Positions 584 through 15,581 of a DNA stretch of 20,000 bases are shown piece after piece. The DNA comes from Rhabdothermincola salaria (GTDB lineage Bacteria; Actinomycetota; Acidimicrobiia; Acidimicrobiales; Acidimicrobilacustridaceae). A program made the position numbers and the translations under genes. Under the pieces are notes generated by a model. It made no database searches, was not told the origin of the DNA, and saw nothing but the letters and a program-made list of their open reading frames with translations. Numbering within the stretch: position 1 is the stretch's first letter; each line of letters begins with the position of its first letter. The stretch is taken from the NCBI RefSeq assembly GCF_021246445.1, contig NZ_JAJQXW010000005.1, positions 239,390 through 259,389 on the forward strand, given 5' to 3'.

Positions 584-2212
584 TCAGCAGGTGGCGGTGG
601 TGCCGGGTGCCGTGGCGGTCGCCGCCGACACGCCGTCGACGTAGAGATCGACCCGGTACTCCACCGGCGCGCAGGCACGTGGCGTGCTCAAGGTGATGCC
701 CTGCCCGTCGGTGGGCAGGCCCACGTAGAAGAGCTCGGAGGGCTGGATCCACGATGCGCCGGGAGCGGGCCGCTCGTAGATGGCGATGATGACCTGGTCG
801 TCGTCCCCGACGCCGGCGATGTCGAGCTCGACGGTGGTGCGGTCGTCGGCGAAGGCGAGGGTCTCGATCGTGACCGATGCGTCGGGCGGCGGTGTTCCGG
901 CCGGCGCGAGGTCGACGCCGGGGGTCTGGTCGGCTCGGGCTTCGGCGACGAAGCGCATGCTGCGGGCCCGGAACTCCTCGACGAGGTCGGTCTGCTCGGG
1001 TGCGCGGTCCTCGACCCACTCGAGGGCGGTGAGGTACTGGGCCGCCAGAGCACGATCGACGTCGGAACCGGCGAGGGGTGCCATGAACTCGAGGGCTCGG
1101 CGGAGCCATTCTTCGGCCGTGGCCGCATCGCCCTCGGCGATGGCCACCGCCGAGCGGGTGAGGGCCAGGCCGGGTGTGCGCTGGTTCTCCCCGATGGCCA
1201 GCTCGAGCAGCTCCGCGGTGCGGGCCCAGTCGGCGCCGACGAGGGTGGCGAGGGCGGCGGTGGCCACGGTCGTGGGGTCCTCGTCGCCGCCTTCGCGAAG
1301 CGCCACCTCGAGCTGGGCGGCCGTGGTCCGCAGCAGGTCGGGGTCGTTGTCGGTGATGGCGAACGTGCGAAGGAGGTCCGGATTGGCCTCCACCAGCGTG
1401 GACAGGCCGAGGCCCCGGTGGGCGATCTGGTAGCCGTCGTCGGCGGTCACGGCGTCGGCGAACGCCGCCACGGCATCCGTCGCCCGGCCCTCGTCGAGCG
1501 CGACCTGGCCCGTGGCGCTGGAGGTGATGGCCTCGGGGGCGACGTCGGGGATGGGCTTGAGGTAGATCTGGATCGCCCAGCCGAAGCAGAACACCGCCAG
1601 GATCATGCCGGGCACCACGAACGGGGGTCGCAGGCCCCGCGACACCACCATGGTGAAGCCGACGAGGAAGATGGCCACCGCCAGCGTCGTCAGCACCGTC
1701 TCGTACTGCGAGGCCCGGTTGTTCCAGGTGATCCGTTCGGCGACCAGCTGCTTGTGCTCGAGGGCGAGAGCACGAGCCTCCTCGCTGATCTCGGTGGCGC
1801 GGACGGCGTCGCCGGTGAGCGCGCGCTCGACGACGGCGGTGGCCTCCTCGACCCGGCCTTGCTCGGCGTCGGGGTCGAGGGTGATGGCCCCCTCCTCGGC
1901 GGCGATCTCGGGCAGGCGGAAGCCGGGCCGGGACGCGAAGACCTTCATCTCGGCCTCTGTCTGATCGATGCCGGCCTTCACGCCCTGGTCGACGACGGCG
2001 GCCGTCTGGGACTCCGAGGCGAGGCGGGTGGCTTGGCGCGTCGTGCGCGACTCGTTGGTCCCCGCGTCGGTGGCCAGCACCGCGATCCACCCACCGAGCA
2101 GGGCGAGGACGGCGAGGGTGATGCCCACCCCGCGCCGGTAGCGCGCCTCGGTGCGGTCGTGGACCTCGGGCTCCTGGGCCGCCGAGTCGGTGGGGTCCGG
2201 TGGCGTCGCCAT
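584..2212 (-). CDS. Membrane protein (542 aa): DUF4337-like 3-TM N-terminal part, TPR-like helical region, C-terminal beta-sandwich
   Basis: Typical high-GC codon usage. Hydrophobic segments GVGITLAVLALLGGWIAVLA, VLTTLAVAIFLVGFTMVV and FVVPGMILAVFCFGWAIQIYL. TPR-like stretches (GQVALDEGRATDAVAAFADAV; AIAEGDAATAEEWLRRAL). Beta-rich C-terminus with YRVDLYVDG and two Cys. Family label is by resemblance only. Confidence 0.75.
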   Translation of the reverse strand: MATPPDPTDSAAQEPEVHDRTEARYRRGVGITLAVLALLGGWIAVLATDAGTNESRTTRQATRLASESQTAAVVDQGVKAGIDQTEAEMKVFASRPGFRLPEIAAEEGAITLDPDAEQGRVEEATAVVERALTGDAVRATEISEEARALALEHKQLVAERITWNNRASQYETVLTTLAVAIFLVGFTMVVSRGLRPPFVVPGMILAVFCFGWAIQIYLKPIPDVAPEAITSSATGQVALDEGRATDAVAAFADAVTADDGYQIAHRGLGLSTLVEANPDLLRTFAITDNDPDLLRTTAAQLEVALREGGDEDPTTVATAALATLVGADWARTAELLELAIGENQRTPGLALTRSAVAIAEGDAATAEEWLRRALEFMAPLAGSDVDRALAAQYLTALEWVEDRAPEQTDLVEEFRARSMRFVAEARADQTPGVDLAPAGTPPPDASVTIETLAFADDRTTVELDIAGVGDDDQVIIAIYERPAPGASWIQPSELFYVGLPTDGQGITLSTPRACAPVEYRVDLYVDGVSAATATAPGTTATC

Positions 2213-2213
2213 G

Positions 2214-2948
2214 TCAGAAGACCGTGACCACCGTGGTCACGACGACCGTCAGGGCCAGGGTGGAACCCAGGGCGGTGCCCACGCGGCGGGTGAGCACGCG
2301 ATCGGTGAGCTGGGCCGCGGTGTAGAAGACCACCGCGACCAGCAGCAGCAGCGTGGCCCAGCGAAGGTTGCGAACCCGGTCGCGGGTGTCGTCGGCTCGC
2401 TCCGCCCAATCGTCGGGGTTGGGGACGCCCGGCGAGGCGAGCCCGGTGGTCACCTCGGCCTGGAGCACCTCGATCTGTGCGTCGAGGTCGAACGACAGGG
2501 GATCGTCCGGAGCGGCCACGAGTTGGGTCAACAACGTCTGCTCGCCGAACAGCCCGGACGCGTACGCCAGGTCCGAGGCGGCGACCCTCTGCTCGTCGGC
2601 CTGGGTGGCGAAGGTGTCGGCGAGATCGTCGGCGCCCTGGTCCCGGAGGGTCGGGAGCAGCGCGTCGATGGCGTCGGCCTCGGCGTAGGCGGCCACGTAG
2701 CGGACGTAGGCCACGGCATCGGTGATGGCCGCCAGGGCGACCTCGGTCGCCTGCTGTTGCTGGACGATCGTCTGGCCCACCGACTGACGATCCTCGTACG
2801 CAGCCGTCGAGCCGAGCTGGCCGGCCCGCCACGTGAAGATGCCGGCGATGATCGTGATGACCCCGATCAGCAGCGGTAGGAGCCAGATCGGGATGTACCG
2901 GCGCGGAGGATCCGCCGGGCGGTCCTGTCCTGGGTCGTCCGCGGTCAT
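2214..2948 (-). CDS. Membrane protein (244 aa), DUF4337-like TM / helical loop / TM-TM architecture
   Basis: N-terminal TM (IWLLPLLIGVITIIAGIFTW), long amphipathic helical region, two C-terminal TMs. Its stop lies 1 bp from the ATG of the 542-aa gene. Confidence 0.75.
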   Translation of the reverse strand: MTADDPGQDRPADPPRRYIPIWLLPLLIGVITIIAGIFTWRAGQLGSTAAYEDRQSVGQTIVQQQQATEVALAAITDAVAYVRYVAAYAEADAIDALLPTLRDQGADDLADTFATQADEQRVAASDLAYASGLFGEQTLLTQLVAAPDDPLSFDLDAQIEVLQAEVTTGLASPGVPNPDDWAERADDTRDRVRNLRWATLLLLVAVVFYTAAQLTDRVLTRRVGTALGSTLALTVVVTTVVTVF

Positions 2949-3093: not shown

Positions 3094-5184
3094 TCACGGC
3101 TGGGGCGGGCGCGGCGGTGCGCTGGCCGCGAGGCGGACCGGGACCCCCGACTGCAGCACCATGCCGGTGAGGGGGTCGACGGCCTCGTCGGCGCTGGTCA
3201 GCGAGCTCACGTTCGGATCGTCCCAGCCGTGGGCCACCGTCACCGCGTCGGGATGGAGACGACCGTCGGCTCGGAGGGTGCCGGTCAGCTGGCCCCATGG
3301 CGAGGTCACCGTCACGCCGGTGCCGTCGGGTCCGATCGGGGTGGCGGCGCTCGGGTGAGCCATGACGAGCACCACCTCGGTGCGACCACCCGGGGCCGCC
3401 ACGTCACGCAGCTGCGAGTTCATGGTGCGCAGCTGGCGGTGGGGCACGAGGACGAGCCCGGGGGCGTGATGGGAGCGGGCCTCGGCCAGAGCCTCCTGGA
3501 GCTGGCCGAGCAGCACCTCGGGGGCCAGACGCCACCTCCCGTCGGGGAGGACCTTCTCGTGGACCCAACCGAACACGGCCCCCGAGGCGACGATGCCCGA
3601 GCGGGCACCCCGCATCGCCTCGGCCCCCACGGCGCTGCGGGCGAGCAACGGCTCGAGCAGGTCCTCGTCGGTCGCGTCCGCCACCGTCAGCCCCCGGGGG
3701 AGGGCGCTGAACCCGAGGTGTTCGGCCACCGTCCCCAGCGACCACCACACGGGCCGGCGCTCTGAGGTCGGTGCGACCACCGCCTCGGTGAACTGGCCGG
3801 CGACCGCGAGCTGGTAGGTGTCGAGCAGCCAGGTGGCGTCGGCCCGTTCGAGCTGGTCGACCGCAGGCAGGACGTGCGTGGCCAGCTCGGTGGTCTCCGT
3901 GGCCACCACGTCGAGCACGGCGAGGGTGGGCAGCGAGGCCAGCGCCCGGCGGGTGCGGGCGACGTCGGGGAAGGCCGTCACCGGGTTCCCGCCCACGACG
4001 ATCAGTGCGCCCACGTGGCCCGCTTCGATCTCGCTCACCAGCCCGGCGCAGGGCCATTCGCCGAAGCGATGGGGGAGCTCGGGCCGTGACGGCGGGCCGG
4101 GGCCCGGCGCGCCGCTCGACGCCTCCCACTGCCGGGTGTCCAACCGGGAGAGCAGCCCGGGGTTGAACCACATGCCGCCGGGTCGGTCGTAGGAGTCGGT
4201 GACCACGTGGAGGGCCCAGAGGAGGTGCTCGGTCACGTTGGCCGTGGCCGCCATCGAGGTGCCGGTGCCCGTGAGCGCGCTCACCCGCCCCGCCTCTCGC
4301 ACGGCGGCCAGGAGCCCGGCGAGATCCTCCGCGGCCAGGCCGGTGGCCCCGGAGACCAGCCCGTCCTCGAAGCCGACGAGCGCAGCGGCGAGCTCGGCGA
4401 TGCCCGCGGCCCGGCGTTCCGCGTCCGCCCGCACCTCCGCGTCGTCCAGGAGCCTCCGCACCAGCCACCCCAGGACGAGCCAGTCGGTGCCGGGTCGCAC
4501 CTGCAGGTGGTGGTCGGCCTGTGCCGCGGTCTCCGTGCGGCGGGGGTCCACCACCCACAGCCGGCCCCCGCGCGATCGGTGCTCCCGCAAGCGGTTCACC
4601 GGGTCGGGGATGGCGTTGGAGTGGCCGTGGGAGACGATCGGGTTGCTGCCGAAGAGCACCAGGAGCCGGCTGCGCTCGTGGTCCCACACGGGGGTCAGCC
4701 CGCTCCATCCACCGACCAGCTCGGCCACGAGGGGCTTGCATGGCGTGTCGATGGTGGTGGCGGTGTACTTCTGGCGCGAACCGAGGGCGCCGAGGAAGCG
4801 TTCGGCGGCCCGCCGCCCGGCGCTGTCGAAGGCCGACCCGCTGGCCAGGTACATGGCCACGCCGTCGGGGCCGTGCTCGTCCACGGTGGCGGTGATGCGG
4901 GCGGTCAGGTCGTCGAGGAGCGCGTCCCAGCCGACCGCCTGGCGGGCGGAGCCCCTGCCCACCTCGGGGCGGTCGAGCCGCTGCGGGCTGTGGTGCAGCG
5001 CCGGGAGGGCCCGGCCCTTGGGGCAGCTGTAGCCGCGTGAGAGGGCGTGCTCGGGGTCGCCTCGCACCTCGAGCACGCGGTCGCCCTCGGTGCGCACGAC
5101 GACACCGCACATGGCGTTGCAGATCCGACAGAACGTGCGGTGTTCGTCGGGGGCCACGTCGCCGTCGCCATCGTCGACCGTCAT
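3094..5184 (-). CDS. Molybdopterin (Mo/W-bisMGD, DMSO reductase family) oxidoreductase catalytic subunit
   Basis: N-terminal 4Fe-4S motif FCRICNAMCG...GYSCPKG; FGSNPIVSHG, VVDPRRTETA, GGNP and HVLPA motifs; C-terminal molybdopterin dinucleotide-binding domain ending in DPLTGM. No Tat signal. Confidence 0.93.
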   Translation of the reverse strand: MTVDDGDGDVAPDEHRTFCRICNAMCGVVVRTEGDRVLEVRGDPEHALSRGYSCPKGRALPALHHSPQRLDRPEVGRGSARQAVGWDALLDDLTARITATVDEHGPDGVAMYLASGSAFDSAGRRAAERFLGALGSRQKYTATTIDTPCKPLVAELVGGWSGLTPVWDHERSRLLVLFGSNPIVSHGHSNAIPDPVNRLREHRSRGGRLWVVDPRRTETAAQADHHLQVRPGTDWLVLGWLVRRLLDDAEVRADAERRAAGIAELAAALVGFEDGLVSGATGLAAEDLAGLLAAVREAGRVSALTGTGTSMAATANVTEHLLWALHVVTDSYDRPGGMWFNPGLLSRLDTRQWEASSGAPGPGPPSRPELPHRFGEWPCAGLVSEIEAGHVGALIVVGGNPVTAFPDVARTRRALASLPTLAVLDVVATETTELATHVLPAVDQLERADATWLLDTYQLAVAGQFTEAVVAPTSERRPVWWSLGTVAEHLGFSALPRGLTVADATDEDLLEPLLARSAVGAEAMRGARSGIVASGAVFGWVHEKVLPDGRWRLAPEVLLGQLQEALAEARSHHAPGLVLVPHRQLRTMNSQLRDVAAPGGRTEVVLVMAHPSAATPIGPDGTGVTVTSPWGQLTGTLRADGRLHPDAVTVAHGWDDPNVSSLTSADEAVDPLTGMVLQSGVPVRLAASAPPRPPQP

Positions 5185-5233
5185 CCGGGCAGTGTCGCGC
5201 GAGGCGGCTCCTGGGCCCGCTCGTGACGTGCGC

Positions 5234-6628
5234 TCAGGTGCTGTCGTTGACCTCGAGCGCCACGGGGTGCCGGACCACGAGGCGGAAGCGGCCGCGCCCG
5301 GTCTTCTCGATGCGCACCGGCGCCGAGCGCTCGTCGAGGCGGCGCTTCAACAAGATGAGCCGACTCTCGAGGTTGTCGCGGAGCTCGGGGAGCTCGAGCG
5401 ACGGGTCGAGGCGCACCTCCTTGTTGGTGAACTCGGTGCGCCCGTCGCGTTCGTGGCTGCGCAGCAGAGAGCACAGGACGCGTCCGGCAACGCCCTTGAT
5501 GAGGTACTCGCCGTCCACGAACACGCTGCCGTCGGCGGCGTAGGTCCGGACCACCGAGACGGGGGTGCCCGAGGCGCCCGGGGCCGGTCGGTTCGCGGCG
5601 GAGGGGCGACTCGGGGACTCCGGGTGGTCCCGGGCCTCCGCTCGGGCGGCCTCGATGCCGGCGGCGACCACGGCGGCAACGACCGCCAGGGCGGCCTCGT
5701 CGGCCGGACCGAACGCCACCTTGTCGCGGCTCTCGACGGCCAGCACCCCGACGAGCTGGCCGAGCACCTGCAGCGGGACGGCCAGCTGGCTCTCGGCGTC
5801 GTCGAGCACGGGCAGGGGCACGATCGGTCCGCTCAGGTCCTCACCCTTCGCCTCGAAGGAGCGTCGGACCGTGCGGGCGTACTTGCCCATCTGCCCCAGG
5901 TTCCCGATGCGGACCGGTGCGCATCGTTGACCGGCCAGGCCGATGGTGCCCTCCCCCAGGGCCAGCTCCGAACCCACGCCTTCGTCGGGGTAGCCGTGGC
6001 TGGCGATGGTGTAGAGCTGCTCGCCTTCTTCGTCGTGGAGGGCCAGGACGACGTGGTCGTAGCCGAGCACCGCCGACAGGCCTCCCACGGTGGCGTCGAC
6101 CAGCGCATCGAGGTCGCCACACCGGGCCAGCCGCCCGGTGAGCTCGGCGACGGCGCCGAGCTCGACCTCGGCGAGCGGCGCGGGTTCGGGGCAGGCGCCC
6201 TCGACCAGGTGCACGGCGGCGGGCACGTGCTCCACGGCGACCACCCGGTAGATGTCGGCCGCACGGAGACGGAACACGTCCTGCATGCCGCTGAGCGCGG
6301 CGATGGTGTCGACGTCCTCCCGGAGCCGGTCGAACACCGGTCCCCGCCGGTCGGTTCGCTCGTAGACGAGGGCGAGGCGGTACTCGTCGTAGTTGCGGGG
6401 GTCGAGCACCAGCACGCTGGCATGGGGGTTCTCGGCCAGGTTGCGGGCGGTCTTGGAGAGGAACTGGTTGGACAGCGCCACCCGCTCGCCGTCGACCATC
6501 CGCACCCGCGACAGGTAGGTGACGTTCGGTGTCCCGTCGGCCGCGGCGGTAGCGATCACTGCGGGGACCCCGCCCTCGAAGCAGATCGCCAGATCGGCGA
6601 GGGAGACGTCTCTCGACGGGGTGCTCAC
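5234..6628 (-). CDS. PNPOx-like (FMN-binding split barrel)-GAF-winged-helix putative transcriptional regulator (464 aa)
   Basis: Start reassigned to GTG 6628, a GTGA overlap with the upstream stop. N-terminus CFEGGVPAVIATAAADGTPNVTYLS...LSNQFLSKTARNLAENP is PNPOx-like. Central GAF (ASHGY...GEGTIGLAG...SQLAVPLQVLGQLVGVLAVES...F...DE). C-terminal wHTH-like region (DGSVFVDGEYLIKGVAGRVL...NLESRLILLKRRL...IEKTGRGRFRL). Confidence 0.88.
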   Translation of the reverse strand: MSTPSRDVSLADLAICFEGGVPAVIATAAADGTPNVTYLSRVRMVDGERVALSNQFLSKTARNLAENPHASVLVLDPRNYDEYRLALVYERTDRRGPVFDRLREDVDTIAALSGMQDVFRLRAADIYRVVAVEHVPAAVHLVEGACPEPAPLAEVELGAVAELTGRLARCGDLDALVDATVGGLSAVLGYDHVVLALHDEEGEQLYTIASHGYPDEGVGSELALGEGTIGLAGQRCAPVRIGNLGQMGKYARTVRRSFEAKGEDLSGPIVPLPVLDDAESQLAVPLQVLGQLVGVLAVESRDKVAFGPADEAALAVVAAVVAAGIEAARAEARDHPESPSRPSAANRPAPGASGTPVSVVRTYAADGSVFVDGEYLIKGVAGRVLCSLLRSHERDGRTEFTNKEVRLDPSLELPELRDNLESRLILLKRRLDERSAPVRIEKTGRGRFRLVVRHPVALEVNDST

Positions 6629-7098
6629 GAGCGCACCGGGGACAGCGGCGAACCGGCGTCGGGACCCGGGGTCTGGTCGAAGCGATCCTCGACCGCGACC
6701 GTGCAGGCGACGATCGCTCGTGGGCGCCAACGCTCGAGGATCGGCCGAGCGGCTCCGTCGGCGGTCTCGATGTCGGCGAACAGCGCGTCGATGTAGGCCT
6801 CCGCCGTGGTGAAGTCGGCCGGCCCGGCGGGTTCGATGCCGAGCGAGCGACCCTTGAGCTGCACCGACCGGAGCGTGGGGACGTCGGCCGCGGTCACCGC
6901 GACGGCTCCACCATCGCCCAGCTGCCGGCACAACGCGTGGTCGTCGCCGCTCACCAGGAGCCGCAGGCGGTCGGGGTCGTCGTCGAGCACGACGAGGCCC
7001 CAGCCGCGGCCCGCGTGGGGAAGGCCGTCGGGGCCGACCGTGGCCACGATGAGCGCTGCGCCGCCCTCGAGCAACGCCCTGGTGTCGGGGTCGAACAC
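6625..7098 (-). CDS. Pyridoxamine 5'-phosphate oxidase-like (split-barrel flavin-binding) protein (157 aa)
   Basis: C-terminal part of ORF 6625..8574. GTG at 7098 with GAAAGG upstream. Sequence MFDPDTRALLEGGAALIVATVGPDGLPHAGRGWG...VAVTAADVPTLRSVQLKG...FDQTPGPDAG. Confidence 0.82.
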   Translation of the reverse strand: MFDPDTRALLEGGAALIVATVGPDGLPHAGRGWGLVVLDDDPDRLRLLVSGDDHALCRQLGDGGAVAVTAADVPTLRSVQLKGRSLGIEPAGPADFTTAEAYIDALFADIETADGAARPILERWRPRAIVACTVAVEDRFDQTPGPDAGSPLSPVRS

Positions 7099-7120
7099 GG
7101 CGCGTCGGGCCTTTCGTCGG

Positions 7121-7184
7121 TTGAGTGAGCGACCGAGTAGCGATCGTGGGCTTTTCTTAGCATTTCGCGCCGGATCTCTGAGCA
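7121..7184. promoter_or_regulatory. Divergent promoter region with helically phased repeats, a putative binding array for the wHTH regulator
   Basis: Relatively AT-rich patch. TGAGC 7126, GTAGC 7137, TGGGC 7147, TTAGC 7157 and TGAGC 7179 are spaced about 10-11 bp apart (one 22-bp step). Includes the imperfect 11-bp direct repeat GAGCGACCGAG/TAGCGATCGTG. Confidence 0.4.
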
Positions 7185-7272
7185 ACGCCGCACGCGCCGA
7201 ACCCTCACGATGGCTCCGACGAACCCCGGCACCGGCCACCCCGGCGGTGTCGACACCTCGAAGGAGACCACC

Positions 7273-7995
7273 ATGACCATCACCGCATCCCCGTCGGCGA
7301 CCGCCGTCCCCGCCCCGTCGGACCTGGCGCCGATCGTCGTCGACCTGTACCGCGACATCCACAAGGGGATCCGTGCCGAGCTGTTCGCGGCCACCCTCGA
7401 CGCCGGTCGGGCCGATCCCGCCGACGACGCCGGCCGGACCGCACTCGATGCCCAGGTGAACGACCTCGTGCGCTTCCTCGGGCAACACGCCGAGCACGAG
7501 GACGGCGCCATCCAGCCGGTGCTCGAGATCGAGCTCCCGGACCTGGCCGAGCGGGTGGCGCGAGAGCACGTCGGCCTCGAGGGCCGCATGGTTCGCCTGG
7601 CCGAGATCGCCCAGGTGGCCCGGGTGGCCCCCGACCACCACCAGCGCCTCCGGGTGCACCAGCTCCACGTGGAGCTGGCCGCCTTCACCTCCGAGTACCT
7701 GGCCCACCAGGACCTCGAGGAGCGGGTCGTCATGCCGGCCCTCGAGCAGGCCGTCGGGGCGGAGGCGGTGGTGGCCATCCACGCGGCCATCGTGGGCCCG
7801 ATGCCCCCCGAGGAGCTCATGGCCAGCCTGGCGGTGATGGTCCCGGCGATGAACGTCGAGGACCGCGTGGAGCTGCTGACCGGCATGCGGGAGAGCGCAC
7901 CCCCCGAGGCGTTCGAGGCGGTGCTCGGCCTCGTGCGCAGCGTCCTCGAACCGGCCGGGGCTCGTGCCGTCTCCCGCCGTCTCGGCGTCGCTTGA
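7273..7995 (+). CDS. Hemerythrin-like (HHE) di-iron domain protein (240 aa)
   Basis: AAGGAG RBS before ATG 7273. Ligand pattern H...HxxxE...H...HxxxE in DIHKGIR / QHAEHED / REHVGLE / AHQDLEE, followed by a helical C-terminal extension. Confidence 0.9.
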   Translation: MTITASPSATAVPAPSDLAPIVVDLYRDIHKGIRAELFAATLDAGRADPADDAGRTALDAQVNDLVRFLGQHAEHEDGAIQPVLEIELPDLAERVAREHVGLEGRMVRLAEIAQVARVAPDHHQRLRVHQLHVELAAFTSEYLAHQDLEERVVMPALEQAVGAEAVVAIHAAIVGPMPPEELMASLAVMVPAMNVEDRVELLTGMRESAPPEAFEAVLGLVRSVLEPAGARAVSRRLGVA

Positions 7996-8128
7996 TCCTC
8001 GCCGGCAGCGTCCGGTGACCCCCGGCCAGGCCGGACGGGAACTCCCCAGGGAACTGGGATGTCCCCGTGTCCGACCGCTTCGTACCGTCACTTCGACACC
8101 CCACCCTTCCCCCACCGAGGAGATCCTC

Positions 8129-8734
8129 ATGTCCACGACCATCGCTCCCTCTCGTCGCCCCTCTCGCACCCTCTCGGCCCTGGCTGTCGTGGTCCTGCTC
8201 GGCCTCGGCGCCGTGGCGTGCGGTGACGACACGTCCGACGAGGTCGGGGCCGAACCCAGCGGCGAAGCTGCGACCTCGACGACCACCAGCACCGACGGGC
8301 GGACCGTCGAGGTCGTCGCCACCGACTTCGCCTTCGACGGGCTGCCCGAGGAGGTGCCCGTCGGCACCCAGGTCACGCTCGTCAACGACGCGGGCCGTGA
8401 GCTCCACGAGTTGGTGGCGTTCCGCCTCCCCGACGACGAGACCCGCACCGCCGAGGAGCTCATGGCCGATCCCTCGGCCCTGGGCGGTCTGCTCGCCGGG
8501 GCCGAGCCGACCATGGTGCTGCTGGCCGAGGCCGGCGCGCCCCAGATCGCTGCGGTCGGCGACGGGACCTTCACCGAGCCCGGTCGCTACCTCGTGATCT
8601 GCGCCATCCCCACCGGCGCCGACCCGGCCGAGTACCTGGCCGCCGCCGCCACCTCCGACGGGCCGCCCCAGGTGGAGGGTGGCGCTCCGCACTTCGCCCA
8701 CGGGATGTGGGGCGAGGTCGAGGTCGTGGCCTGA
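8129..8734 (+). CDS. Cupredoxin-like (type 1 copper) lipoprotein (201 aa)
   Basis: GAGGAG RBS before ATG 8129. Signal peptide with lipobox AVAC. Cupredoxin strands VEVVATDFAF...VTLVN...HELV...PGRYLVIC...PHFAHGMWGEVEV give His, Cys, His and Met ligands. Confidence 0.85.
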   Translation: MSTTIAPSRRPSRTLSALAVVVLLGLGAVACGDDTSDEVGAEPSGEAATSTTTSTDGRTVEVVATDFAFDGLPEEVPVGTQVTLVNDAGRELHELVAFRLPDDETRTAEELMADPSALGGLLAGAEPTMVLLAEAGAPQIAAVGDGTFTEPGRYLVICAIPTGADPAEYLAAAATSDGPPQVEGGAPHFAHGMWGEVEVVA

Positions 8735-8770
8735 CGCTGCTCGTGCGCGGACGGCCGCCGCGCCGACGAG

Positions 8771-8797
8771 GAGGCCCGGGGCGACGCCCCGGGCCTC
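8771..8797 (+). terminator. Hairpin after the cupredoxin gene, probable terminator
   Basis: GAGGCCCGGGGC-GAC-GCCCCGGGCCTC: perfect 12-bp stem 36 bp after the stop. No U-tract, which is common in Actinobacteria. Confidence 0.6.
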
Positions 8798-8855
8798 GTC
8801 GCGTGGACCGAGAGATCGACGACCGGGCATCGCCCTGGCGGTGAGGTACGGATGC

Positions 8856-8877
8856 ATGTCGCGGCGCGCCGCGACAT
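8856..8877. repeat. Perfect 22-bp palindrome upstream of the small secreted protein gene
   Basis: ATGTCGCGGCG|CGCCGCGACAT is its own reverse complement. Confidence 0.7.
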
Positions 8878-8978
8878 CGCGAGAAGAAAGCCGCGAGCGC
8901 GCGTAAGGACCTCGGCGTTCGACGGTCAGGAGGGGTGACGGGCCGGAGACGCCGGCCCTCACCCAGAGGAGAGATCCG

Positions 8979-9329
8979 ATGACCAGCATCCGCACCCGCA
9001 CCCTCCGCATCGTCGCCGCCACCGCCCTCACCGTGGGCCTCGCCGGCTCCAGCACGGCCGTCTACGCCCTCACCCCCGCGCCGGATCCCGGGCCGACCGA
9101 CCTGGCCCCGGGCGGCAACGGGCCGGACGATCCCGGCTTCGGTGGTCCCGACGACCTCACCACCCCGACGACCGAGCCCGAGTGCCACCCGTTCCTCGCC
9201 ACCTGCGACCTCGCCCCGAACCCGGAGGACCCCGGCGACCCCGGCGACCCCGAGGTCGACGACGGTGGCCCCGAGGTCGACGACGGTGCCGCCGTCCCGG
9301 TCGTGGTGCGTCCCACCTTCACCGGCTGA
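8979..9329 (+). CDS. Small secreted acidic, Pro-rich protein with C-terminal VRPTFTG (116 aa)
   Basis: AGGGGAG RBS. Sec-type signal peptide (RTRTLRIVAATALTVGLAGSSTAVYA). Low-complexity D/P/G body with a CHPFLATC Cys pair. Confidence 0.8.
   Translation: MTSIRTRTLRIVAATALTVGLAGSSTAVYALTPAPDPGPTDLAPGGNGPDDPGFGGPDDLTTPTTEPECHPFLATCDLAPNPEDPGDPGDPEVDDGGPEVDDGAAVPVVVRPTFTG
9228..9288 (+). repeat. In-frame tandem repeats (9-bp DPG units and 21-bp PEVDDG units)
   Basis: GACCCCGGC occurs twice plus a partial copy from 9228. CCCCGAGGTCGACGACGGTG occurs at 9248-9267 and 9269-9288. Confidence 0.85.
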
Positions 9330-13195: not shown

Positions 13196-13467
13196 TCGTC
13201 GTCCGGTTCGACCCGGAGCCTCGACCAGCGCCACAACCGGTCGAGGTCGACCACCCAGCCCGATGCCGCGCCGAGGCGCCGGTCGACGTAGGCGTCGAGA
13301 TCGCCCACGCGGACGTGCTCGAAGTCGGCGACATCCCCAGGCGTGCCGACCTCGGCGACGGGCACGTCCGAGGAGCCGCCGCAGCAACCGTTGCGGTGCG
13401 CCGCCCGCAGCACGAGCGCCCGGTCGCCGAGGTGGTGGCGCGCCCGAGCCGAGACGGTGAGCCTCAT
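13180..13467 (-). CDS. Small CCGG-motif protein (95 aa), HesB-like / CC-Se-motif-like, last gene of the ars operon
   Basis: ATGA overlap with the acr3 stop. Sequence MRLTVSARARHHL...NGCCGGSSDVPVAEVGTP...VGDLDAYVDRRL...RLRVE. Its 3' end overlaps the BVMO 3' end by 16 bp. Confidence 0.7.
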   Translation of the reverse strand: MRLTVSARARHHLGDRALVLRAAHRNGCCGGSSDVPVAEVGTPGDVADFEHVRVGDLDAYVDRRLGAASGWVVDLDRLWRWSRLRVEPDDDQAST

Positions 13468-14579
13468 GACGTGCGGGTGGCCGGGAAGGCCGAACGGGTG
13501 GCGTTGGCGTAGCGCACCAACAAGAGCATGACCGGCACCTCCACCAGCACCCCGACGACGGTGGCGAGCGCGGCGCCCGACTGCAGCCCGAACAGGGCGA
13601 TGGCGGCGGCCACGGCCAGCTCGAAGAAGTTACTGGCACCGATGAGCGCGCCGGGGGCGGCCACCGCGTGACGAGTGCGGAGCTTGAAGAAGACCCCGTA
13701 CGTCAAGAAGAAGATGACGACGGTCTGGATGGTCAGCGGCACGGCGATGAGCGCGATGTGGAAGGGCTGGTCGAGGATGACGTCGCCCTGGAACGCGAAG
13801 AGCACGACGAGCGTCACGATGAGCCCGGCGGGGGTCACGGGGGCGATGCGGGTGAGGAAGACGTCGTCGAACCAGCGCTGGCCTCGTCGCTGGATCAGCA
13901 GCACGCGGGTGGCGTAGCCGGCGGCGAGCGGGATGACGATGTAGAGGGCGACCGAGAGCAGGACGGTGTCCCAGGGCACGGTGATGTCGGAGATGCCGAG
14001 CAGGAACACCACGATGGGGGCGAAGGCGACCAGCATCACCAGGTCGTTCACCGCCACCTGCACGAGCGTGTAGGCGGGGTCGCCCTTGGTGAGGTAGCTC
14101 CACACGAACACCATGGCCGTGCAGGGCGCCGCCCCGAGGAGGATGGCGCCGGCCAGGTACTCCCGGGCCAGGGCTTCGTCGATGAACGGCGAGAACACCA
14201 CCAGCAGGAAGACCCAGGCGATGGCGTACATGGTGAAGGGCTTGACCAGCCAGTTCACGCCGGTCGTGACCACCAGCCCGACCGGTTCGCGACGGACGCC
14301 GACGACGGCCCCGAAGTCGACCTGGACCATCATCGGGAAGATCATCGCCCAGATGAGGACCGCCACCGGGAGCGAGACCGACGCGTACTCGTAGCGGGCG
14401 AGGGTCTCGGGGACGGCGGGCACCAACTGTCCGAGGGCGACGCCGGCGACGATGGCCAGCGCCACCCACAGGGTCAGGTACCGGCCGAAGACCCCGAGCC
14501 CGCCCCCGCCGGCGGCCTCGGCCGGCTCGGGGGCGGCCGGACCGGGGGGTGGGCTCGGCTCGAGGTCGTGGTCGGACAC
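13464..14579 (-). CDS. acr3: ACR3-family arsenite efflux transporter
   Basis: About 10 TM helices. Signature motifs RYLTLWV, NWLVKPFTM, GAAPCTAMVFVWS, GASNFFELAVAAAIALFG and VGVLVEVPVML. Confidence 0.97.
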   Translation of the reverse strand: MSDHDLEPSPPPGPAAPEPAEAAGGGGLGVFGRYLTLWVALAIVAGVALGQLVPAVPETLARYEYASVSLPVAVLIWAMIFPMMVQVDFGAVVGVRREPVGLVVTTGVNWLVKPFTMYAIAWVFLLVVFSPFIDEALAREYLAGAILLGAAPCTAMVFVWSYLTKGDPAYTLVQVAVNDLVMLVAFAPIVVFLLGISDITVPWDTVLLSVALYIVIPLAAGYATRVLLIQRRGQRWFDDVFLTRIAPVTPAGLIVTLVVLFAFQGDVILDQPFHIALIAVPLTIQTVVIFFLTYGVFFKLRTRHAVAAPGALIGASNFFELAVAAAIALFGLQSGAALATVVGVLVEVPVMLLLVRYANATRSAFPATRTS

Positions 14580-14580
14580 G

Positions 14581-15057
14581 TCAGCCGCAGCAGGCGCTGT
14601 CGGTCGAGCCCGCGGCGGCGACCGCGACCGGCTCGGGGGCCGACGACGGGGCGCAGCACGCGTCGCCTTCGCCGAGCGAGCGGTTGGTCATCTCCTCGGC
14701 GTCGCCCGTCTTCACGTACCACTCCCACTTGGCGCCGTCGGGGTCGGTGACCCAGGTCTCGGTCTTGGTGGCGTAGCAGCACATGGTGTCGTCGACGCCC
14801 GTCGTCTCGAGCCCGGTGTCGGAGAGGCGGGACTCGGCCGCGAGCACCTCGTCGGCGAGCTCGGTCTCGACGCCCAGGTGGTTGAGCGAGCCTCCTTCGG
14901 CCGCTTCGATGAGGACGAGCTTCAGCGGCGGGTCGGCGATCTCGAAGTTGGCGTAGCCGGGCTTGCGCTTGGCCACCTCGGTGCCGAAGAGCTTGGCGTA
15001 GAAGTCGACGGCGGCGTCGACGTCGGTCACGTTGAGGGCCAGCTGGACACGGGACAT
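14581..15057 (-). CDS. arsI: ArsI/CadI-family VOC metalloenzyme (putative C-As lyase), 158 aa
   Basis: ATG 15057 with AGGAG RBS. Sequence MSRVQLALNV...FYAKLFG...KPGYANF...LNHLGVE...CCYA...WVTDPDG..WEWY, including the vicinal Cys pair. Confidence 0.9.
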   Translation of the reverse strand: MSRVQLALNVTDVDAAVDFYAKLFGTEVAKRKPGYANFEIADPPLKLVLIEAAEGGSLNHLGVETELADEVLAAESRLSDTGLETTGVDDTMCCYATKTETWVTDPDGAKWEWYVKTGDAEEMTNRSLGEGDACCAPSSAPEPVAVAAAGSTDSACCG

Positions 15058-15081
15058 GTGTGGGCTCCTGGAGGTAGACTC

Positions 15082-15136
15082 ATCGATGTTCATCGATTGG
15101 TCGTCACTCTCGCAAACATATCGACAAGTGTCAATA
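15082..15136 (-). promoter_or_regulatory. arsI-acr3 promoter with two ArsR-type inverted-repeat operators
   Basis: Inverted repeats ATCGATG-TT-CATCGAT (15082-15097) and TATCGACA-AG-TGTCAATA (15119-15136). On the minus strand: TTGACA (15134-15129), 17 bp, GAGAGT (15111-15106). Confidence 0.8.
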
Positions 15137-15224
15137 CGTCGGCGCCGTCCGCGCCGAGTGCAGGAGTCCAGGGCGAGCGATGGTCGTGTCGCCGAGACGA
15201 GCGGCCCGACCGAGGAGGTCCAGC

Positions 15225-15581
15225 GTGGGGAACGAAGCGGTCGGCACCGAGGTCGCCCCGGCGGAGTGCTGCACCCCGGTGGTCGGCCGGGGCCTCGACG
15301 AAGCCGAGGCCGTCGAGTTGGCCGAGCTGTTCAAGGCCCTGGCTGATCCGGCCCGGCTCCGGGCCCTCTCGCTGGTGGCCAACGCCCCCGCCGGCGAGAT
15401 GTGCGCCTGCGACCTGGTGGAGCCCCTCGAGCGGTCCCAGCCCACGGTCTCGCACCACCTCTCGCTCCTCGTCGAGTCGGGCTTCCTGACCCGCGAGAAG
15501 CGCGGTCGCTGGGCCTGGTACCAGCTGGTCCCCGAACGGCTCGACCTGGTGCGCCAGGCCCTGGGCGTCTCGGGTCCCTGA
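15225..15581 (+). CDS. arsR: ArsR/SmtB-family As(III)-responsive repressor (118 aa)
   Basis: GAGGAGG RBS before GTG 15225. N-terminal CC pair, then FKALADPARL, EMCACDL, SQPTVSHHL and REKRGRWAWY. Divergent from arsI-acr3. Confidence 0.93.
   Translation: MGNEAVGTEVAPAECCTPVVGRGLDEAEAVELAELFKALADPARLRALSLVANAPAGEMCACDLVEPLERSQPTVSHHLSLLVESGFLTREKRGRWAWYQLVPERLDLVRQALGVSGP

Follow-up and report, generated by a model that had tools for sequence, protein, structure and literature searches.

The stretch of DNA analysed here (the window: 20,000 nucleotides of the Rhabdothermincola salaria genome, contig NZ_JAJQXW010000005.1, positions 239,390 to 259,389) carries four neighbouring genes, S, R, H and C, all of which are intact open reading frames upon translation of the window. 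S (7098-6625, 157 aa) and R (6628-5234, 464 aa) lie on the minus strand and overlap in a GTGA at 6625-6628, while H (7273-7995, 240 aa) and C (8129-8734, 201 aa) lie on the plus strand, H being separated from S by a gap of 174 bp (7099-7272) and C starting 133 bp past H. S encodes a split-barrel protein that is translationally coupled to R, R a predicted one-component activator, H a hemerythrin-like protein that is a predicted direct target of R, and C a likely cupredoxin-fold lipoprotein that is accessory. The S-H gap accommodates a predicted operator of four repeat positions spaced by 11 bp (7144-7189, plus strand), a predicted -10 hexamer of the H promoter, CACGAT (7206-7211, plus strand), and the ribosome-binding site AGGAG of H at 7262. 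S, R and H are each present in a single copy within the 3.9-Mb genome. A previous model-made description of this locus from the letters and their open reading frames (the sequence-only reading) had already proposed the GTGA coupling, the 174-bp gap and the four genes, all of which translation confirmed. On the basis of the comparisons described below, we conclude that R is very likely a one-component regulator, and that H is likely its direct target via a site within 7099-7272.

The predicted activator R (5234-6628, minus strand) joins a split barrel, a GAF domain and an OmpR/PhoB-type winged helix. Pfam detects PNPOx_N at residues 23-86 and GAF at residues 172-324 (both E 1.5e-10), and a model of R built from a 75-sequence alignment reached a predicted local distance difference test score (pLDDT) of 91.2. 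First, the split beta-barrel (residues about 8-138; 6215-6607, minus strand) has its best structural matches in the flavin mononucleotide (FMN)-binding protein swol_0183 (3in6, Z 16.7), HupZ (Z 14.9), FMN-bound YviC (Z 14.2) and the Desulfovibrio FMN-binding protein (Z 13.7). Its conserved residues N35, S40, Q55, K59, T60 and N63 presumably form the flavin-phosphate side, going by what is known of the family, and profiles of the F420 family TIGR03618 and of HutZ scored far under cut-off on the PNPOx-like protein. Second, the GAF domain (residues about 152-333; 5630-6175, minus strand) is of the PtsP/NifA type and nearest to the PtsP GAF domain by structure (3trc, Z 19.6) and to 3ci6 by profile (E 6.5e-17). 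Homologue conservation revealed no conserved cysteine in this domain and no conserved set of haem or Fe-S ligands in R beyond C16 (60/75) and H192 (56/75). The barrel-GAF unit also precedes a Ser/Thr kinase (P0248), and an Atlas cluster of LuxR-type regulators contains a match to the barrel.

Third, the C-terminal domain of R gave no meaningful sequence match in the PDB or Pfam, and none of 41 C-terminal domains of the R family matched Trans_reg_C at E<=1. When the last 105 residues were modelled alone with AlphaFold (pLDDT 91.7), OmpR/PhoB-type DNA-binding domains occupied ranks 1-11 of 48,161 chains compared with the model, the top matches being BaeR (Z 10.6, root-mean-square deviation 2.6, 96 residues aligned), GlnR (Z 9.2) and AdeR (Z 9.0). 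Foldseek returned the same families weakly (best SaeR, E 0.019). Within this winged-helix domain (residues about 358-461; 5246-5557, minus strand), the predicted recognition helix (residues 418-433) is the most conserved stretch measured, with 79% mean column identity versus 44% for the GAF domain. The PNPOx-GAF-winged-helix layout of the sequence-only reading is thereby recovered, the barrel and the GAF domain by Pfam and the winged helix by the AlphaFold model only. A phosphorylated receiver domain is not present in R, whose N-terminus consists of split barrel and GAF. Homologues of R are annotated as 'GAF domain-containing protein' or 'adenylate cyclase', of which we reject the latter label since R contains no cyclase domain; the family has been overlooked by annotation because its DNA-binding domain matches no profile.

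The core unit of the system is the S-R gene pair and not a four-gene module. In the best 80 of 590 confirmed loci, a set rich in Acidimicrobiia, S (6625-7098, minus strand) is found directly upstream of R in 78 cases, and the remaining two are cut by contig ends inside R. An even draw of Pseudomonadota, in which 15/401 genomes carry R and which added 13 new loci to two already seen, likewise revealed S in 13/13. The two genes overlap by 4 nucleotides in 43 of the 59 measurable junctions, and S is fused ahead of R in eight homologues (P0098 and seven of 150 best representatives). The fusions have linkers of 25-50 aa, which makes it unlikely that they are frameshift artefacts, as judged by comparison of the proteins rather than the DNA.

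S itself matches PNPOx_N of Pfam below cut-off only (E 4.9e-4), its profile matches 2htd (E 6e-4), and an hhalign comparison (E 2e-4, probability 45%) identifies S and the R barrel as distant paralogues. S is without the helix motif of R and keeps R31, Q80 and K82 along with a QTPGP tail, K82, Q142 and P144-P146 being invariant in 66/66. The conserved residue sets of the two proteins are thus complementary (N35/S40/K59/T60/N63 in R versus R31/Q80/K82/Q142 in S). Split barrels act as dimers with flavin sites built from both subunits. Because of this mode of action, and because complementary residue sets have been kept, S is likely the second half of the R barrel dimer, and such an unequal dimer would hold one shared cofactor site, with FMN as the most likely occupant.

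The R family is large and patchily distributed. We retrieved 5193 homologues at E<=1e-20 among 8000 candidates scored, and 422 clusters at 50% identity (E<=1e-30), not all of which are full length. R occurs in 6/40 relatives, in 5/151 genomes of the class and in 2/401 genomes of the phylum, both of the latter from its own family. The locus sets from the relatives, the best 80 and the class overlap partly, and their counts are not additive.

H adjoins S-R in 54 of the 80 loci, in divergent orientation in 31 (Acidimicrobiia), convergent and downstream in 21 (Betaproteobacteria, Acidobacteriota and Gemmatimonadota) and codirectional and upstream in two (Myxococcota). It is also found next to S-R in 10/13 evenly drawn loci and beside R in all five genomes of the class that carry R. 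The linkage survey that the sequence-only reading had suggested thus gave a positive result. Of the 26 loci without H, three lack upstream DNA. Of 23 genomes whose S-R locus is without H, many of them incomplete, 21 had no match to the H family anywhere, and R therefore does not need H: H is the commonest target and not an obligatory one. In three loci (L077, L081 and L089) H has the array region in common with two divergently oriented genes, one for a DUF1289 protein and one that is metallo-hydrolase-like.

The product of H (7273-7995, plus strand) matches the Pfam family PF01814 (Hemerythrin) above cut-off (E 2e-7), and its residues H30, H72, E76, H99, H145, E149 and E150 are kept in 53/53 aligned homologues. 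They spell out an H...HxxxE...H...HxxxE pattern of the four-His/two-Glu type in a four-helix bundle, with six predicted iron ligands. The five-His/Glu/Asp set of O2-carrying hemerythrins, which is that of the annelid and Methylococcus proteins, is not found in H, which has four His and C-terminal Glu residues instead. Among solved structures the H profile matches FBXL5 best (E 4e-10), with YtfE at E 7e-4 and bacteriohemerythrin at E 0.49 only, and the YtfE/RIC profile TIGR03652 yields 15.4 bits on H against a cut-off of 204.7. FBXL5 thus replaces YtfE/RIC, to which H had been likened, as the nearest solved relative. H also carries a conserved C-terminal helical extension of 70 aa, which may resemble that of plant BRUTUS. 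The hemerythrin-like domains of FBXL5 and BRUTUS are described as sensing iron and O2 (PMC12022348), the FBXL5 site as distinct from O2-carrying hemerythrins, and HHE proteins as often tied to responses to O2 or to reactive oxygen and peroxide (PMC4919030).

To define the predicted operator we aligned eight intergenic regions and found common words in seven. The convergent loci are informative because H and S-R are transcribed there from well-separated promoters, and they display four TTA(A/G)(G/C) repeats at 11-bp spacing before H. A matrix trained on 20 convergent, non-actinobacterial promoters exceeded the best of 50 shuffles in 31/31 held-out divergent promoters (29 with positive scores). 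The codirectional promoters both scored negatively and one of the two beat the shuffles. In a Thiomonas locus (L084) the H promoter did not beat the shuffles and the site is instead located before an upstream cytochrome c gene; this locus (L084:6376-8475) features the cytochrome c gene followed by two tandem hemerythrin genes, among several thioredoxin-fold genes, as read by eye. In the R. salaria genome the top site of the 20-promoter matrix is 7144-7189 (score 13.6 versus -4.2 for the next), and a second matrix, from Acidimicrobiia, selected the same site (42.8 versus 6.3). The next-best scores are at background, and no wider regulon was found in the 3.9-Mb genome. Two extra repeat-like words upstream of the array, TGAGC at 7126 and TAGC at 7138 (7126-7141, plus strand; read from the sequence), are out of 11-bp phase with it.

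Positive array matches were recovered in 69/80 loci, and the array is kept across at least six phyla in which R is the only shared regulator seen. Two controls address the specificity of this association. First, the array is absent before H in 3/3 genomes without R (scores -24 to -34). Second, it precedes two of three unlinked H genes in R-bearing genomes (scores 28.9 and 43.0), one of which surfaced in the whole-genome pattern scan. Autoregulation of S-R was considered and is not general, as the convergent loci have their positive matches before the target and not before S (with L150 as an exception). By position, then, the predicted array tracks the target gene and not the regulator. One repeat kept across phyla is what the OmpR/PhoB fold and the near-invariant recognition helix of R would fit.

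The geometry of the H promoters points in the same direction. Of the 49 H promoters with a positive array score, 48 have a -10-like hexamer that starts precisely 27 bp downstream of the point where the last repeat begins; in the window this predicted hexamer is CACGAT at 7206-7211. Owing to the fixed 27-bp spacing, the -35 position is overlapped at its upstream edge by the last repeat. Beneath the array the promoters share no -35 consensus, and the spacing to the -10 hexamer is rigid. A generic sigma-70 scan of 5100-9000 uncovered no full promoter (and no terminator either), a null result that is expected if an activator site replaces the -35 element. No RNA holder was on record for 5234-8734 either, a result that says nothing about expression.

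Several observations weigh against this reading. The DNA-binding domain of R is without a sequence-level match to known families and its Z-scores are middling, none exceeding that of BaeR. GAF-winged-helix forms of about 300 aa without the barrel exist, and the GAF domain may therefore be the true sensor. The 80 best loci, being rich in Acidimicrobiia, are not independent, and 11 of them (some cut short) are without a positive array match, as are one of the 13 evenly drawn loci (L146; another is marginal) and one unlinked H gene in an R-bearing genome. In the window only two of the four repeats are good, the second (TTAGC, 7157) and the fourth (TGAGC, 7179), the first and third being degenerate. 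Rhizobial sites reach scores of no more than -4 to +3 under the rigid model and call for a looser one, and a plain IUPAC scan allowing three mismatches did no better than its reversed control (2-4 versus 5-19 per genome). Finally, the quasi-palindromic array points away from the adjacent E1 genes (see below) in four loci; the array is partly readable on both strands because its core is near the palindrome CTTAAG.

We then considered which genes the array precedes where H is missing. An exported monohaem cytochrome c gene is present in 14 loci, with the array directly upstream in 10, before the first gene of the operon in three and the remaining locus cut short; the array also stands before cytochrome c in L065. 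A thiamine-dependent E1 alpha/beta pair is encoded behind cytochrome c in 10 loci, and in two loci of the even draw it is H that leads such a pair. A search for E2/E3 motifs was negative in 12/12 loci with the E1 pair. The E1 pair loci, with either cytochrome c or hemerythrin as leader, are L042, L043, L047, L052, L054, L065, L067, L069, L070, L078, L142 and L145. Further arrays are situated before FAD-linked oxidases in Chloroflexota (nearest to BagK/FevA1, E 8e-68, below cut-off), before cupins in Acidobacteriaceae and before a diheme protein. TTAGG repeats precede flavin monooxygenases, for which trimethylamine monooxygenase models are the nearest match (E 1e-27, below cut-off), as well as a cupin-arylamine acetyltransferase-YceI operon on Rhizobium etli p42e and on one more plasmid. 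These target lists suggest that what the system controls is a small, locally encoded set of redox or detoxifying enzymes and carriers, which differs between lineages.

C (8129-8734, plus strand) is accessory and outside the core. Its product has no Pfam or PDB sequence match, CopI being reached below cut-off only (E 0.021), and the Atlas yielded weak leads to named families (scores of 0.84, under 0.9). What makes a cupredoxin-fold lipoprotein likely are two features read from the sequence, a lipobox at C31 and the arrangement H93...C158...H188-x4-M193, in which the Cys-His loop is long. The C family occurs in 2/80 loci, where it overlaps the H stop codon, and in none of seven additional loci for which 1.5-3 kb of sequence lay downstream, and a conserved four-gene module was rejected on these counts. 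No S-R array is found in 7996-8128, and C is without an operator of its own. This gap may harbour a separate promoter for C: its sequence features are an inverted repeat of high GC content, the word GGGAACT in two copies at a distance of 12 bp, and the hexamer TACCGT. A single paralogue of C, 56% identical (G000:C3:395058-395656), resides elsewhere in the genome beside a gene that looks TetR-like by eye, and the upstream sequence there includes an inverted repeat rich in AT.

Elsewhere in the window, a molybdopterin oxidoreductase gene (3094-5184, minus strand) lies 49 bp downstream of R and is possibly co-transcribed with it; it is not among the neighbours recurring in at least three of the 80 loci. 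Beyond C, the segment 8979-11010 (plus strand) encodes a small secreted-looking Pro/Asp-rich protein and then an extracytoplasmic function (ECF) sigma factor. The latter continues at its C-terminus into a long fused region that comprises Cys/His residues, a membrane segment and an outer part rich in Pro. An arsenic-type cluster occupies 13464-15581, with an Acr3-like transporter gene and a glyoxalase-fold ArsI/CadI-like gene divergent from an ArsR-like gene (ArsR read by eye). Two paralogous-looking membrane proteins, one of them with tetratricopeptide-like repeats and a weak DUF4337 match, are encoded at 584-2948 (minus strand).

From these data we consider it probable that R, acting with S, activates H through the array. 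S and R would form one sensor-activator that shares a split-barrel site, and flavin in the shared barrel would read a redox-type signal. The winged helix of R would then contact the 11-bp repeats of 7144-7189 in head-to-tail order, in the manner of OmpR/PhoB domains. Positioned there in place of a -35 element, R would recruit RNA polymerase, whereupon the hemerythrin gene H would be switched on. Activation, S-R binding and flavin binding are all predictions of the comparisons above. As to the signal, we tentatively propose cellular redox or O2 state, and with the same reserve a redox-active or nitrogen-containing organic compound destined for detoxification; NO appears improbable as the signal, iron rather more improbable, and any other signal most improbable. 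A fuller version of this scheme, which we advance as a possibility, is that S-R represents a new class of bacterial sensor, in which two unlike split barrels form a heterodimer around one common flavin site; this heterodimer would feed a kinase-free OmpR-type activator and thereby control a plug-in redox/detox cassette across at least six phyla, its commonest output being a bacterial counterpart of the iron-oxygen sensor domain of FBXL5 and BRUTUS.

The strongest alternative, itself a tentative one, retains the circuit and replaces the signal by an organic compound (an aromatic amine, N-oxide or nitroso compound) in the barrel or GAF pocket, H being an enzyme or a trap for reactive intermediates. 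Several alternative targets modify small molecules (the arylamine N-acetyltransferase with cupin and YceI, the flavin monooxygenases, the FAD-linked oxidases and the E1 pair). E1 enzymes convert nitrosoarenes to hydroxamic acids, although our literature search on this point returned nothing. In addition, the tiny regulon (one genomic site) and the patchy distribution (5/151 and 15/401 genomes) are unlike those of global O2 regulators. On the other hand, the targets share no common pathway and include no recurrent transporter, and the commonest target is a di-iron protein whose family is tied to O2 and peroxide responses (PMC4919030).

The sequence-only reading had instead favoured a flavin-based sensor of redox, O2 or NO that drives a joint di-iron and copper response, which in its form as an O2 or NO sensor with such a joint response we now regard as unlikely. 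The resemblance of the barrel to FMN-binding proteins, the full di-iron ligand set in H, the coupling of C to H in two loci and the many targets that use O2 all speak for it, and the hemerythrin is likely a direct target. The joint di-iron and copper response is not supported as worded, since C is absent from 78/80 loci and from the seven further ones and lies 133 bp off in the window without its own operator. The signal as worded there is also unsupported; no NO reductase, flavohaemoglobin or catalase is among the operator-led genes identified, and R lacks a conserved haem or Fe-S ligand set beyond the two residues named above.

R might also repress H, or another regulator might read an array that merely travels with S-R. 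Binding across the -35 region can equally obstruct polymerase, a quasi-palindromic core could suit other proteins, and binding by R is itself a prediction. We nonetheless judge this improbable in view of the lack of a conserved -35 under the array, the rigid -10 spacing, and the fact that the array is missing where R is missing and is kept in at least six phyla with R as the sole shared regulator seen. The weakest contender, an iron-sensing loop in which H, as a relative of FBXL5 and BRUTUS, would sense or buffer iron and feed back on R, can appeal to the FBXL5 match of the H profile and to the iron and O2 sensing of these domains (PMC12022348), but it is very improbable given that R works without H in the H-less genomes and that no iron uptake, transport or storage gene is among the identified targets.

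Activation of H by R and S can be set against known systems. R is like OmpR/PhoB activators (PhoB, BaeR, AdeR and GlnR, and the receiver-less CadC, ToxR and AfsR) in its C-terminal fold, and the array resembles their sites in that its tandem repeats follow one another at intervals of one helical turn and the final one falls on the -35 position, as in the pho-box layout of PhoB-type activators. R differs from them in having neither a receiver nor a kinase partner, its input being a split barrel, a GAF domain and a second small protein; it also has no Trans_reg_C match, and the loop before its recognition helix displays a conserved motif of its own. The fold of its N-terminal domain is that of split-barrel FMN and haem proteins (swol_0183, YviC, the Desulfovibrio FMN-binding protein and HupZ/HutZ; Z 13.7-16.7). 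Known members of this group are stand-alone homodimeric enzymes or binding proteins, whereas S and R would connect a pair of dissimilar barrels, whose conserved residue sets complement each other, to a DNA-binding domain. The GAF type of R is common to NifA/NorR-type regulators and PtsP, yet R is without the sigma-54 ATPase of the former, has a winged helix as output, and its GAF domain lacks the conserved cysteine for bilin binding. Similarly, H shares the pattern of six His/Glu ligands with FBXL5, BRUTUS/HRZ, YtfE/RIC and the mycobacterial hemerythrin-like proteins, but differs from FBXL5 in being a stand-alone bacterial protein and the output of a regulator instead of a ubiquitin-ligase domain, and in its C-terminal extension.

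The sequence-only reading knew of no experimental description of this circuit, and our full-text literature search, with supplements such as transcriptome tables outside its reach, found none either. S-R is likely a real and apparently unstudied regulator family that acts like a receiver-less OmpR/PhoB activator, one that is widespread and has been missed by annotation. The predicted operator, the promoter geometry and the target list make the system testable in Rhizobium etli CFN 42 (RHE_RS24895/RHE_RS24900), in Variovorax and in Aquihabitans daechungensis. If the proposed scheme is true, the split-barrel heterodimer would join the known sensor domains, the tight single-promoter switch could be put to use in biosensors, and the circuit would provide a handle on the role of FBXL5-like hemerythrins in bacteria.

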